Assembly (NCBI GenBank): GCA_016219985.1
Contig: JACRJO010000037.1
Location: 72,251 to 136,250, forward strand
DNA length: 64,000 nucleotides
Source of the DNA: Sphingobacteriales bacterium
GTDB taxonomy: Bacteria > Bacteroidota > Bacteroidia > Chitinophagales > Chitinophagaceae
Direction of reading: 5' to 3'
The position numbers and the translations under genes are program-made. This document shows positions 37,817 through 57,770 of this stretch, one piece after another. Positions within the stretch are counted from its first letter, which is position 1. Each line of letters begins with the position of its first letter. The notes below the pieces were generated by a model. It did not search any database. It was not told the origin of the DNA and worked only from the letters and a program-made list of their open reading frames with translations.

Positions 37817-38510
37817 CCAATGTGCCAATGTGCCAATGAATCAATGTGCCAATTAGCCAATGGTCCGGGTAGCTGATTAACGAACGGGTCAATTAGTTAA
37901 TGTGCCAATTAGCCAATGAGCCAATGGTACGGGTAGCTGATTAGCAGACGGGTTCTTTAACTACACCATTGCTACGAAGCGCTTTGAAATTTCCTGATTT
38001 GGTTATTATTTGATTTTTGGAATTTGGAGCTTATTTGGTTCTTGTTTCTTCGGTTCTTGGTTCTTCAATTCATCATTATCTTTGCAATGTGCCAATGGAT
38101 CAATTAGCCAATGTGCCAATTAGCCAATGGTACGGGTAGCTGATTAACGAACGGGTCTGATAACTACATCCTTGCTACGAAGCGTTTTGGATTTTTTTGA
38201 CTTGGTTATTTTTGGGTTCTTGGAATTCGGAGCTTATTTGGTTCTTGTTTCTTCGGTTCTTGGTTCTTCAATTCATCATCATCTTTGCAATGTGCCAATG
38301 AATCAATTAGCCAATGTGCCAATTAGCTAATTAGCCAATGGTACGGGTAGCTGATTAACGGACGGGTCTGATAACTACATTTTTGCTACGAAGCGTTTTG
38401 GAATTTTTGTTTTGGTTATTATTTGCCTGCCTGTCCGGTAGGCAGGTTTCTTGCAATTTGGAATTTCTTTGGTTCTTTGGATCTTCGGCTCTTGGTTCCT
38501 GGTTCTTCTC
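37812..38510. repeat. Composite ~205-bp tandem repeat (3 units plus one truncated) made of octamer, core and heptamer modules
   Basis: Anchor GGT(A/C)CGGGTAGCTGATTA at 37862, 37926, 38129 and 38340. Confidence 0.92.
38426..38446. repeat. REP-like palindrome CCTGCCTGTCCGGTAGGCAGG
   Basis: CCTGCCT/AGGCAGG inverted arms; related copies at 42097, 54917, 54963, 55005 and 57714. Confidence 0.85.
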
Positions 38511-38613
38511 TTCACCATAATCTGCTCATCCGCCAACGAAAATCATTTCATGGTTTGCAAAAATGGGGCGGAGTACAAAGGATGCGTAACTTTAGAAGGT
38601 TAAAAAACCATTT

Positions 38614-39132
38614 ATGCGAATTATCCTGTTCCTGTTCACCCTCACCCTGTTTTCCTGCGGAAATACGATTTATATTGTCCGTCATGCGGAGAAAGAACCG
38701 GTGCAGGCAGGTGCTGCCGGCATGATGGCCAGTGATCCTCCCTTGTCCGAAGCCGGCCGGGTCCGTGCCTATGCGCTTCGGGAACGGTTGCGGCACGAGC
38801 ATGTTACGCTTATTTTTTCAACCAATACCACCCGGACCCTTTCCACTGCTCAGCCGCTGAATGAAATGCTGGGAAGGACAAAGATCGAATTATACAGCAG
38901 CAAAAAAGATTCCATGGATCTTTTCATCAACCGGTTGAAACAGGTGAAAAAGAGAAATGTGCTGGTGGTCGGACATTCTAACACCATTGATGACCTGGCC
39001 AATAAACTCTGCGGGAAGACCGTCGTGCCCGGGGACCTGAAAGACACCGAGTATGATAACCTGTATATCATTAAGCGGAGGGGCCGGAGTTATTCATTTA
39101 AGAGCGGGAAGTATGGGGTGAGGACGGAGTAA
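38614..39132 (+). CDS. Histidine phosphatase family lipoprotein (SixA/PGAM-like)
   Basis: LFSC lipobox; VRHAEK and VVGHSNT motifs. Confidence 0.88.
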   Translation: MRIILFLFTLTLFSCGNTIYIVRHAEKEPVQAGAAGMMASDPPLSEAGRVRAYALRERLRHEHVTLIFSTNTTRTLSTAQPLNEMLGRTKIELYSSKKDSMDLFINRLKQVKKRNVLVVGHSNTIDDLANKLCGKTVVPGDLKDTEYDNLYIIKRRGRSYSFKSGKYGVRTE

Positions 39133-39185
39133 GTTAGTTTGTAGTTAGTAGTTAGTAGTCTCAACCCTCAACCCCGAACCCCTAA
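39133..39185. repeat. Abutting heptamer tracts (TAGTTAG, then CTCAACC) between convergent genes
   Basis: Direct reading. Confidence 0.8.
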
Positions 39186-39187
39186 AA

Positions 39188-40531
39188 TCAATAATCCCTC
39201 TCCGGGTTAAAATTCTCCAGCTCTTTTGCAACAGCCGTTAAGAATGTAGCGCCGAGGCTGCCGTCGATGATGCGGTGATCGTAGCTCATGCTCAGGTACA
39301 TCATGTGCCGGATCGCGATACTGTCACCGGCAGGGGTTTCCACCACCACGGGTCTTTTCTTAATCGTACCTACTGCGAGGATCGCCACCTGCGGCTGGCT
39401 GATGATCGGGGTGCCCATCAGGCTGCCAAAGGTTCCCACATTGGTCATGGTGAATGTGCCGCCCTGGGTATCATCGGCTTTGAGTTTACCGTTACGGGCT
39501 GCATCTGCGAGACCGTTTACCTGTTTGGATAAGCCCACGAGGTTCAGCTGATCGGCATTTTTTATCACCGGTACGATCAGGTTGCCGGAAGGCAGGGCCG
39601 TGGCCATCCCGATATTGATATCTTTTTTCACGATGATCCGGTCGCCGTCGAGCGAACTGTTGATCAGCGGGAATTTCTTAATGCATCTTACAATGGCTTC
39701 AATGAAAAGCGGGGTAAAGGTGATCTTCGTGCCTTCTCTTTTCTCAAACTCTTTTTTCACCCGGTCTCTCCATTGTACCATATTGGTTACATCGGCTTCG
39801 GTGAAACTGGTTACATGCGGGCTGGTCTGTTTGCTGCGCACCATGTGATCCGCGATGAGTTTGCGCATGCGGTCCATTTCGATGATCTCTACGTTGCCGG
39901 AAAAAGTGGTGAGTTGCGAATTGTGAGTGGCGGTAGGGGTGCTTTCTTTTATGGTTGCTACTTCCTGCGGTCCCGATGCCCGTTGCCCGAAACCCGGAAC
40001 TTTCCCGCTTTTCTTATCATGGACATACTGAAGAATATCTTTCTTGGTCACTCTTCCTTCATTGCCGGTACCGGGGATCGCTTCGAGTTCGGTCATGCTG
40101 ACCCCCTCGCTGGCGGCGATATTCAGTACCAGCGGTGAATAAAAGCGGTTTCCGGGTGCCGGATGCTGGAGGTGTTGCGAACTATGCTGAACCGTTTCCA
40201 CGACCTGGGCCTGCTGAACAGGTTGGGCGGTATAATGGGTTGCAGCGGGAGATTCAACCGGGGCCACCGGGGACTCAGCAATTTCCGCTGCACCGGTGCG
40301 GATACGGGCGATAACGGTACCGATGGGCACGACATCATTTACATTGAATAAAATTTCTTCGATCACGCCGGCGGCCGTGCTGGGGACTTCGCTGTCCACC
40401 TTGTCGGTCGCGATTTCCAGGACGGTCTCGTCCAGTTGAACAGTATCACCTGCTTGCTTATGCCATTTCAGCACAGTGGCTTCCATGATACTCTCTCCCA
40501 GTTTTGGCATGATTAAATCAACAATGGCCAT
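39188..40531 (-). CDS. 2-oxo-acid dehydrogenase E2 (dihydrolipoamide acyltransferase, one lipoyl domain)
   Basis: TDKVDSEV lipoyl Lys; GTGNEGRVTKKDI E3-binding domain; DHRIIDG catalytic motif. Confidence 0.95.
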   Translation of the reverse strand: MAIVDLIMPKLGESIMEATVLKWHKQAGDTVQLDETVLEIATDKVDSEVPSTAAGVIEEILFNVNDVVPIGTVIARIRTGAAEIAESPVAPVESPAATHYTAQPVQQAQVVETVQHSSQHLQHPAPGNRFYSPLVLNIAASEGVSMTELEAIPGTGNEGRVTKKDILQYVHDKKSGKVPGFGQRASGPQEVATIKESTPTATHNSQLTTFSGNVEIIEMDRMRKLIADHMVRSKQTSPHVTSFTEADVTNMVQWRDRVKKEFEKREGTKITFTPLFIEAIVRCIKKFPLINSSLDGDRIIVKKDINIGMATALPSGNLIVPVIKNADQLNLVGLSKQVNGLADAARNGKLKADDTQGGTFTMTNVGTFGSLMGTPIISQPQVAILAVGTIKKRPVVVETPAGDSIAIRHMMYLSMSYDHRIIDGSLGATFLTAVAKELENFNPERDY

Positions 40532-40722
40532 AATCATCTTTATTTATTGGTCATCAATTGCCTTTTTTATTGGCAGGTTGCAGAACAATGCCCGGCAGTT
40601 GTTTCGCCTGCCCGCTTTGCTGCCCGGGCGGGACGCATCCTTCAGTTTCGGTACAGGGATGGACTGACCCGGCAAGCAATTTCTGACCGGCCAAAGGTAA
40701 TGATTTGGACCTAATCAGGCTA

Positions 40723-57091: not shown

Positions 57092-57274
57092 ATGGCAAAG
57101 AAAGGCAACCGTGTACAAGTAATACTGGAATGCACTGAGCACAAAAACAGTGGTCAGCCCGGCACCAGCCGTTATATCACGGTAAAAAACAAGAAGAACA
57201 ACCCCGAGCGTCTGGAGTTGAAGAAGTTTAACCCCATTCTGAAGAAGGTAACTGTTCACAAGGAAATCAAGTAA
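57092..57274 (+). CDS. rpmG: 50S ribosomal protein L33
   Basis: [23 protein letters not shown]...HKEIK. Confidence 0.98.
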
Positions 57275-57352
57275 TAGTTGATAAGTTGACAGGTTGACTG
57301 GTTGACAGGGCCCTGCAAACTTATAAACGTATAAAAATATCAACTTAACAAC

Positions 57353-57523
57353 ATGGCAAAAGCAGCAAAAACGGCGATTAAGAAGGACCCCAAACAGGCC
57401 GCCGAAGCAAAGAACTATACCAAAGTAATCAAGGCTGTCCGCAGCCCCAAATCAGGTGCTTATACGTTCAAGGAGCAGATGGTGCACAAGGATAAAGTGA
57501 AAGATTTCCTGGCTCAAAAGTAA
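57353..57523 (+). CDS. DUF4295 family 56-aa protein (Bacteroidia ribosomal protein bL38), missed by the track
   Basis: MAKAAKTAIKK...KVIKAVRSPKSGAYTFKE; follows rpmB-rpmG and precedes ftsY. Confidence 0.9.
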   Translation: MAKAAKTAIKKDPKQAAEAKNYTKVIKAVRSPKSGAYTFKEQMVHKDKVKDFLAQK

Positions 57524-57546
57524 TTGCGGGTTCGCCTGACTATAGT

Positions 57547-57576
57547 AAAAGCTATTCGTTCCTGCGAATGGCTTTT
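57547..57576 (+). terminator. Intrinsic terminator of the rpmB-rpmG-DUF4295 operon
   Basis: AAAAGCTATTCG-TTCCTG-CGAATGGCTTTT. Confidence 0.8.
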
Positions 57577-57690
57577 GTTGTTTATGCTTCGGCAGGTTCA
57601 GCAAGACAGGCTGAGGGATACTTTTAGGAAAGAGCGGTAGAAAAAGGATCGTTTAGAAGGATTGGTTTATCTTTCTTTAAAGGGGCTGTC

Positions 57691-57770
57691 TACTGACAAC
57701 TGACATCTGGCAACCTGCCTACTCGCCTCGCAGCGAAGCGGGCCGGACAGGCAGGCTGACAACTGACATC
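57691..57770. repeat. AACTGAC heptamer tract interrupted by a long REP-like palindrome (57714-57755)
   Basis: CCTGCCTA-[CTCGCCTCGCAGCGAAGCGGG]-CCGGACAGGCAGG flanked by CTGACAACTGACATC units. Confidence 0.85.

Follow-up and report, generated by a model that had tools for sequence, protein, structure and literature searches.

The palindromes of the window

A 64-kb stretch from the genome of a Sphingobacteriales bacterium (assembly GCA_016219985.1; the whole stretch is referred to as the window, and positions given without a contig are counted from its first letter) carries a short palindrome, which we term P, in five strict copies and one degenerate copy (Table 1). The consensus of P is CCTGCCTGCCGGCAGGCAGG and its general form is CCTGCCTG-(N)-CCGG-CAGGCAGG. 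Two of the window copies enclose the same 21-nt inner hairpin, CTCGCCTCGCRKCGAAGCGGG, which we term Q and which lies directly before the CCGG of P. The pattern CCTGCCT-N(0-30)-AGGCAGG matched the window five times and was not matched in any of 100 dinucleotide-preserving shuffles. A first-pass annotation of the sequence had picked out all six palindromes, the shared inner hairpin, and the flanks and empty sites described below; each was recovered when the window was read directly.

Table 1 Copies of P and Q in the window, with their host tract, paralogous empty sites and neighbouring genes. P+Q denotes P with Q in its apex; strict copies match the pattern given in the text; ^ marks a junction.
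Feature	Position	Strand	Remarks
P, 21 nt, CCTGCCTGTCCGGTAGGCAGG = CCTGCCTG-T-CCGG-TAGGCAGG	38426..38446	.	Strict; between peptidase S9 and histidine-phosphatase genes (Pfam)
P+Q, 41 nt	42097..42137	.	Strict; divergent spacer between cinA (40723-42060, minus) and Peptidase_S13 gene (42157-43569, plus) (Pfam)
Q, 21 nt, CTCGCCTCGCGTCGAAGCGGG	42105..42125	.	In the P apex, directly before CCGG
P, perfect 20-nt palindrome, CCTGCCTGCCGGCAGGCAGG	54917..54936	.	Strict; DNA hairpin of -10.9 kcal/mol
P, 20 nt, CCTGCCTGCCGGTAGGCAGG	54963..54982	.	Strict; followed by GTTCTTC/GGTTCTT heptamer tract
Degenerate nested variant, CCCGCCT...AGGCAGGG	55005..55047	.	Missed by the strict pattern; abuts stop of dihydrolipoyl-dehydrogenase-like gene (55051-56454, minus)
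Region of the three preceding copies	54917..55047		Between convergent M43 peptidase and dihydrolipoyl-dehydrogenase-like genes (Pfam)
P+Q, 42 nt	57714..57755	.	Strict; ends 45 nt before ftsY (57800-58762, plus) and splits a tract of CTGACAA heptamers
Q, CTCGCCTCGCAGCGAAGCGGG	57722..57742	.	Directly before CCGG
CTGACAA/CTGACAT heptamer tract	57690..57772	+	Hosts the 57714 copy; kept without P in sister species
Empty site TTATTTG^ATTTTTG	38012..38013	.	Paralogous; unit 1 of triplicated repeat
Empty site AATTTATTTG^ATTTCTTGG	54769..54770	.	Paralogous

Folded as single-stranded DNA, P reaches -10.9 kcal/mol and P+Q, as at 42097, -16.9 kcal/mol. The copy at 38426 gives a hairpin of -7.4 kcal/mol (z=-4.1), and the degenerate variant, which contains an inner stem related to Q (GCCCGCTT/AAGCAGGC), forms a single long hairpin of -14.3 kcal/mol.

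Four of the copies sit between ...TTG and (N)TTCTT, and the copy at 57714 splits a tract of CTGACAA (equivalent to AACTGAC). Filled and empty versions of a site can be compared within the window itself. The empty junction in the first unit of a ~205-nt repeat (38012/38013) has its filled counterpart, TTATTTG-P-TTTCTTG, at 38426 in the third unit, where P has TTATTTG on one side and a T-rich GGTTCTT heptamer tract on the other; units 1 and 2 are without P. Likewise, the empty site at 54769/54770 has a filled counterpart, AATTTATTTG-P-CCTTCTTG, at 54917.

The ~205-nt unit is present in 3.5 copies at 37812-38510, with P in the third unit only, and combines a conserved core (..GGTACGGGTAGCTGATTAACGRACGGGT..GCTACGAAGCG..) with octamer repeats and T-rich heptamers. 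Tandem tracts were seen in this segment and at 54600-55060 and 57690-57772. A near-palindromic motif, TTCTTAGAAGGGGC / GGGGCCTTCTAAGAA, lies at 57660-57690; it recurs at many sites in the genome and bounds many heptamer tracts, and in four species a conserved copy precedes ftsY. An in-frame palindrome in CinA (41536-41613) may be a member of one of the hairpin families described here. A scan of the window against Rfam 15 at the gathering threshold returned tmRNA (8141-8542) as its sole match, and none at P.

The P family in the genome and its relatives

The genome holding the window (4.03 Mb in 39 contigs, 48.9% GC, 100% complete) was found to contain 147-148 copies of P, compared with a single match to a reversed-pattern control. 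Size classes comprise the perfect 20-nt palindrome, a 21-nt form with one extra base beside CCGG, a 41-43-nt form with Q, and a larger class of 61-81 nt with two or three inner units; one 21-mer is repeated exactly 22 times and one 42-mer 15 times. Unfiltered open reading frame (ORF) calls put 74 copies in 'genes', mostly spurious ORFs running through repeats. With a codon-usage filter applied, which gives a crude estimate, 85% of the copies are intergenic compared with 16% of the genome. Across the genome, around 50 units resembling Q are housed in the arms of P, and their insertion point is fixed at CCGG^CAGG, as read on the opposite strand. In a gammaproteobacterial metagenome-assembled genome (MAG; G001), a different 21-mer occupies the identical point of P.

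Presence and absence of P at orthologous sites, precise and without target duplication, was shown at two of the window loci. In the ftsY leader, the closest relative (G024) and a further genome (G025) possess an unbroken tract, ..TTGGCAA^CTGACAT.., at whose junction the present genome carries the 42-nt P+Q and G017 a different, 22-nt P variant. The spacer between cinA and the Peptidase_S13 gene is empty in G025, G029 and G016, holds 20-nt P variants in G024 and G046, and holds P+Q in the present genome. No target duplication was observed at any of the four filled/empty comparisons, two paralogous and two orthologous. G001 also provides a paralogous pair of empty and filled sites (L067 vs L069). 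Within the GTDB genus, other genomes contain between 0 and 82 copies against 147 here, and one or two exact copies were found in 12 out of 300 other genomes from the phylum. The heptamer of the orthologous ftsY leader itself differs by species (CTGACAA, GTGAATG or TGACTGA).

Period-7 arrays are abundant in the genome, numbering 615 of approximately 198 unit types at a low Tandem Repeats Finder (TRF) threshold; tracts with units of 8 nt (for example CCAATGTG) or 10 nt (for example AAAGCACACG) were also seen, with hundreds of short tracts overall. TRF calls, in which short tracts are under-detected, place 36% of P copies beside a tract compared with 8% of random positions. Since TRF misses short tracts, flanks were instead scored by lag autocorrelation, by which a strongly periodic flank accompanies 33% of P copies and 3.4% of random intergenic positions, a difference of approximately 10-fold. 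Heptamer tracts are thus favoured by P, but not required. The flanks fall into discrete classes: TTGTCAG, TTTGTAG, TTATTTG^GTTCTTG, CGTGTGCTTT^CGTGGC, TTCACCA, TTGAGCA, and copies within GGCCCCCTAAA-type palindromes. No insertion motif was found to be shared across genomes, the only tendencies being ..AA^ (on the A-rich strand) in the present genome and GC^..^C in the MAGs. Another copy lies no more than 500 nt away from 38 of the 148; gaps between neighbouring copies range from 7 to 180 nt and show no mode.

P is also hosted by tRNA-like fragments, other hairpins and coding genes. In MutL, an in-frame 21-nt P at C23:59719-59739 is read as GLPAGQAG within the inter-domain linker. P-like 21-mers were additionally noted at purE (C31:169260) and ispH (C5:220664), either immediately upstream or at the N-terminus. 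Copies nested in other palindromes (AGCCCCCTAAA-P-TTTAGGGGGCT, beside TCCCCCGAAGGGGA) occur at C2:63416, C23:60367, C37:4464 and C20:121904, so that several hairpin families interpenetrate. The possibility that P acts as an 'intron' of functional tRNAs was rejected: ARAGORN finds no tRNA in the P-bearing tRNA-like pieces, even with P removed in silico, which indicates that they are tRNA fragments or hold further inserts.

The first-pass annotation had regarded the palindrome as a mobile element that targets heptamer tracts and is itself a target. The census of some 148 dispersed copies, their non-random flanks and the filled and empty orthologous sites at the ftsY leader and cinA spacer agree with mobility, and the nesting of Q and of the gammaproteobacterial 21-mer agrees with the palindrome being a target. 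The heptamer claim holds as a preference only, given that tRNA loops, hairpins and coding genes are entered too.

A GIY-YIG gene lodged in tRNA, and P beyond the phylum

No mobilising enzyme is encoded within the window, as had been noted in the first pass. Elsewhere in the genome, however, a perfect P lies 22 nt before the ATG of an 84-amino-acid ORF (MYYVYVIRSEVDGRFYVGISENTEKRLEQHNKG...; C4:78693-78944, minus strand). The encoded protein matches the GIY-YIG domain PF01541 over residues 1-69 (E=2.8e-16) and no other domain, and among solved structures it comes closest to the UPF0213/bacterial Slx1-like proteins 1ywl (E=2.3e-7) and 1zg2. The gene is wedged into tRNA-Arg(TCT). P splits a duplicated 5' fragment of this tRNA in the D-loop (GGTCCGGTAGCTCAGTTGAATA-P-GAGCAACTGCC), and the ORF ends within the 5' end of the intact tRNA, which encodes its last codons. 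This arrangement is itself duplicated: C4:78638-79293 comprises two tandem 304-nt cassettes upstream of the intact tRNA-Arg(TCT), each in the order tRNA-Arg 5' fragment, P, 84-amino-acid GIY-YIG ORF. The second cassette is at C4:79054-79248, and in each of the two P precedes the ORF by 22 nt.

The three closest GIY-YIG copies in the genome all have P 22-51 nt away. The paralogue at C12:97190 lies between two copies of P (96913 and 97466). A third paralogue, which contains an internal stop, adjoins tRNA-Leu copies with P in the D-loop and anticodon loop. Homologues in G017 and G004 (87-94% identity) are preceded by P or P+Q at 22-25 nt, a similar arrangement of nuclease and P is found in G003 and G005, and Margulisbacteria and gammaproteobacterial homologues possess P 21-87 nt upstream. 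Among 80 metagenomic homologue loci, near-duplicates included, P was present at all 11 with at least 60% identity compared with 3 of 69 below that level (Fisher p=3.5e-11); the reversed pattern had no match in the 193 kb of these loci. At the 11 P-bearing loci, P lies in a tRNA D-loop or anticodon loop. On these sequence associations, P very probably pairs with one clade of minimal GIY-YIG nucleases.

In more distant nuclease clades, the equivalent tRNA-loop positions are occupied by other GC hairpins, and the present genome alone contains at least five tRNA-adjacent mini-nuclease genes with a different hairpin at each. Four further mini GIY-YIG genes were noted, at C12:221354, C2:7129, C37:6199 and C4:191417/C1:25. 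Three of the four directly follow the 3' end of a tRNA (Asp, Arg-like and Gly), beside duplicated tRNA fragments that are split by different hairpins, for example TCCCCACAnnGCTGTGGGGA, or that carry a Q-related hairpin in the T-loop; the gene at C37:6199 has long inverted repeats on both sides, and no tRNA was seen beside it. The paralogue with the Q-related hairpin in a T-loop fragment is that at C2:7129-7350, and a WOR-1 homologue has the same arrangement. Judging by these hairpins, the C2:7129-7350 paralogue is probably the nuclease of Q. The nested 21-mer specific to G001 likewise adjoins a GIY-YIG homologue of that genome.

The exact 33-nt P+Q pattern was matched in MAGs of Gammaproteobacteria, WOR-1 and Margulisiibacteriota and in one Bacteroidia relative, each of which contains 9-38 copies of P compared with 0-2 for controls. 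Many of these copies are inside long open frames, including glmS (WOR-1 and Margulisbacteria) and mutS. The glmS genes of L008 (WOR-1) and L048 (Margulisiibacteriota) are interrupted in frame, one by P+Q and the other by P, at sites two codons apart (EENFS[..]GDL vs EEN[..]FSGDL), which suggests independent hits at a hot spot. Further sites in these MAGs include a terminator-like hairpin loop, tRNA-like D-loops and P itself. In viral contigs from IMG/VR, the perfect 20-mer was present in 35 stretches (L118-L152), most of them of 60-68% GC and some with 3-6 copies, which indicates that the family reaches hosts well beyond those examined. The proteins common to the P-bearing viral contigs were phage structural proteins only.

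Interpretation and comparison with known systems

We read the P copies as solo, non-autonomous cognate hairpins of the 78-84-amino-acid single-domain GIY-YIG nuclease, and assign this reading as a whole a probability of roughly 55%. P, and probably Q, are interpreted in this way because the association of the nuclease with P mirrors that of the nuclease Ssn with the NTS repeats of Neisseria, discussed below. Q would be a second hairpin family of the same kind, nested in the P apex at CCGG^CAGG. By analogy with Ssn, the nuclease would recognise P folded in single-stranded DNA and nick it, whereupon host replication or repair might join or copy the hairpin into another place. The DNA receiving it would be loop-forming or prone to slippage: the apex of a hairpin, a tRNA loop, a junction in a heptamer tract or a part of a gene that tolerates insertion. 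Within a genome, spread would continue through amplification or gene conversion of composite units of tract plus P, and lengths of 21 and 42 nt would preserve both the 7-nt phase of a tract and the reading frame.

A wider reading is more speculative, and we consider it doubtful as a whole. Here P and Q would represent a cross-phylum class of 20-21-nt non-autonomous hairpins, each moved in trans by its own tRNA-lodged nuclease. Insertion would leave no target-site duplication and would be directed at single-stranded loops, namely the apices of hairpins, the D-, anticodon and T-loops of tRNAs, the junctions of heptamer tracts, and protein linkers. Conserved tRNA genes would serve as universal landing sites for travel between phyla, phages would perhaps be carriers, and the heptamer tracts would possibly be by-products of nicking and slippage.

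Several observations weigh against the reading that we favour. To our knowledge, GIY-YIG nucleases cut DNA and do not join it, and we know of no enzyme for the insertion chemistry; because the enzyme cuts but does not join, mobilisation of P by the nuclease is something we only infer, and to this part of the reading, which draws on analogy, we give somewhat less than even odds. The near-duplicates among the metagenomic loci make these less independent than the Fisher test assumes. The proposed link between Q and its nuclease is based on a related hairpin and not an identical one. Two P-rich genomes, G007 (82 copies, 84% complete) and G028 (39 copies, 100% complete), show no close homologue of the P-linked nuclease. 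The association could also be created by a shared preference of P and the nuclease cassette for tRNA loops. Finally, each flank class has one P variant, and larger repeats may thus have carried many of the copies along passively.

The last three points are those on which an explanation without any dedicated enzyme would draw. According to this explanation, which we regard as unlikely although it is the best of the alternatives, P, a stable hairpin, spreads by slipped-strand or template-switch events and by gene conversion among scattered heptamer tracts and other repeats, and its adjacency to GIY-YIG genes follows from accumulation of both in tRNA loops. Also under the reading that we favour, the pairing of variant and flank indicates that composite units were amplified or homogenised whole. 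Such co-amplification or gene conversion may explain much of the apparent targeting, and gene conversion among dispersed tracts is suggested to account for much of the spread within the genome; the many copies in locally repeated units, including the 38 with a close neighbour, are in keeping with this. Passive spread nevertheless leaves unexplained the occurrence of P and Q, identical to the letter, in four phyla as well as in viral contigs, the insertions into unrelated coding genes without flank homology, and the clade-specific pairing of nuclease and hairpin at the metagenomic loci (11/11 vs 3/69).

A second alternative, that P is not mobile and represents functional hairpins under selection (intrinsic terminators, stabilisers of mRNA or protein-binding sites), appears improbable. 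The GC-rich stems of P are, in some classes, followed by T-rich heptamers, divergent spacers hold only 8% of the copies against 22% of intergenic bases, and P is somewhat closer to upstream stops (55/88). Strand polarity relative to genes is absent, however (49 vs 39). Other copies lie in 5' leaders (ftsY, the cinA/S13 spacer) and in coding regions, MutL in this genome and glmS and mutS elsewhere; orthologous sites are often empty; and tmRNA is the sole Rfam family in the window.

That P is a classical repetitive extragenic palindrome (REP), or REP doublet (REPIN), moved by a REP-associated tyrosine transposase (RAYT, a Y1 HUH transposase) is very improbable. The present genome does contain six matches to the Y1 family PF01797, and P is short, intergenic and of high copy number. 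No P was found within 1.5 kb of any of the six, and a search for PF01797 across this genome, five foreign genomes and 25 genus genomes revealed no Y1 gene flanked by P other than one weak case, a RAYT-like pseudogene of Margulisbacteria with a degenerate P 42 nt upstream. Other hairpins lie beside three of the six genes. The IS200-like Y1 gene at C20:247742 (C20:247706-248417) has its own hairpin, CCTGAGCCTGCGGCTCAGG (CCTGAG...CTCAGG), on both sides, as confirmed by a genome search; hairpin-like sequences beside those at C12:314695 and C24:8982 were identified by eye only. A gene-less pair of CCTGAGCCTGCGGCTCAGG hairpins, 230 nt apart, was also noted at C25:359614-359866. In G017, the orthologue of the C20:247742 gene is frameshifted and itself interrupted by an in-frame 21-nt P. 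P furthermore forms no inverted doublet of fixed spacing and has no constant GTAG or CGTC tag. A RAYT-type REP was therefore rejected. The REP-like character proposed in the first-pass annotation survives as dispersal and mobile-like behaviour, and of the palindrome-flanked enzymes that it had suggested seeking, RAYT or GIY-YIG, it is the latter that stands beside P. An assembly or library artefact common to metagenome-derived genomes is negligibly probable: the foreign P-bearing genomes are indeed MAGs from several pipelines, but the present genome, 100% complete in 39 contigs, holds some 148 varied copies whose contexts are consistent, in-frame insertions keep their reading frames, and copies come from different laboratories and assemblers.

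Should the nuclease indeed move these hairpins, few of the mobile DNA units now known would be as small as P and Q. Their movement would help to explain identical 20-mers in unrelated phyla and the short GC-rich peptides, such as LPAGRQ, within essential proteins of uncultured bacteria, and possibly also the patchy occurrence of shared heptamer repeats in Bacteroidota, Beggiatoaceae and Cyanobacteria. Nucleases of this kind are candidates for cutting single-stranded DNA with specificity for site and structure, and P copies are both strain-typing markers and a source of annotation errors (spurious ORFs and missed tRNA genes). As far as we have searched, no publication describes a tRNA-lodged nuclease paired with a 20-mer that crosses phyla, and in the literature the 12-nt core CCTGCCGGCAGG was found only in two zebrafish primer lists.

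Among known systems, miniature inverted-repeat transposable elements, which possess terminal inverted repeats, a target duplication and a length of ~70-300 nt, were rejected as a class for P, which is 20-42 nt long and was without duplication at the four comparisons. Rickettsia palindromic elements (~100-150 nt) and the GC clusters of yeast mitochondria are selfish palindromes tolerated in frame inside proteins; both are longer than P and lineage-restricted, and we know of no enzyme for either. The SDR4-6 repeats of Nostoc are reportedly hairpins of 21-27 nt in tandem heptamer (STRR) arrays that nest and are present or absent between relatives, again with no enzyme known to us. They differ from P in sequence and phylum, and for P there is additionally a candidate partner protein, with a reference copy lodged in a tRNA gene.

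Direct repeats of the heptamer TAACTGA are common to Beggiatoaceae, Cyanobacteria and some Bacteroidetes, with no mechanism given (MacGregor 2015, PMC4679880). The tracts described here resemble them in being intergenic, in AACTGAC-like units just upstream of start codons and in their patchy distribution across phyla; that study covers tracts only and reports no palindrome or nuclease. With REP/REPIN and RAYT (PMC3116915; PMC3733652), P shares a short, mostly intergenic palindrome of high copy number (148 copies, 85%), single-copy 'domesticated' enzyme genes with their own flanking hairpins, and duplication-free insertion. It differs in its partner, a GIY-YIG nuclease and not a Y1 HUH transposase, in the lack of REPIN doublets and of a constant tetranucleotide such as the GTAG and CGTC tags of REPs (PMC3733652), and in the identity of its sequence in several phyla.

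The closest resemblance is to Ssn, a 94-amino-acid GIY-YIG nuclease of N. meningitidis that cuts single-stranded DNA beside the hairpin repeats flanking its gene (Chenal et al. 2025, PMC11893778). As there, with the NTS/SRM (Neisseria dRS3/NTS) repeats, a small single-domain GIY-YIG protein (78-84 residues here) is encoded by a gene flanked by a hairpin repeat scattered genome-wide in up to hundreds of copies, and each nuclease clade has its own hairpin, in many phyla. The 84-amino-acid protein falls within the Ssn definition of a single-domain GIY-YIG protein of up to 150 amino acids, and genes flanked by the dispersed hairpin, as that definition also asks, are found at both C4 cassettes and C12:97190 and in G004, G017, G003 and G005. 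The SRM motif, HGTCWYN(0-2)YYVSBRHN(0-5)WNVSBRGN(0-2)RNCYNB, overlaps 0 of 148 P copies; in the genome it is not enriched (21 matches vs 26 for the reversed control) and has no match near the GIY-YIG loci. P also differs from the Ssn repeats in being a symmetric palindrome without an oriented CGTC-type flank. The P-linked gene, with UPF0213/Slx1-like proteins as best solved relatives, lies within a tRNA gene, accompanied by duplicated tRNA fragments, and the word tRNA does not occur in PMC11893778. P and Q nest and sit in frame, neither of which we met there, no search having been aimed at them. By analogy, the P system would appear to work like Ssn with SRM, although it may not be a member, P failing the SRM motif. 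If the nuclease does move the hairpins, the two would add a second branch, one based on tRNA, to the recently described association of Ssn-type GIY-YIG nucleases with hairpin repeats.

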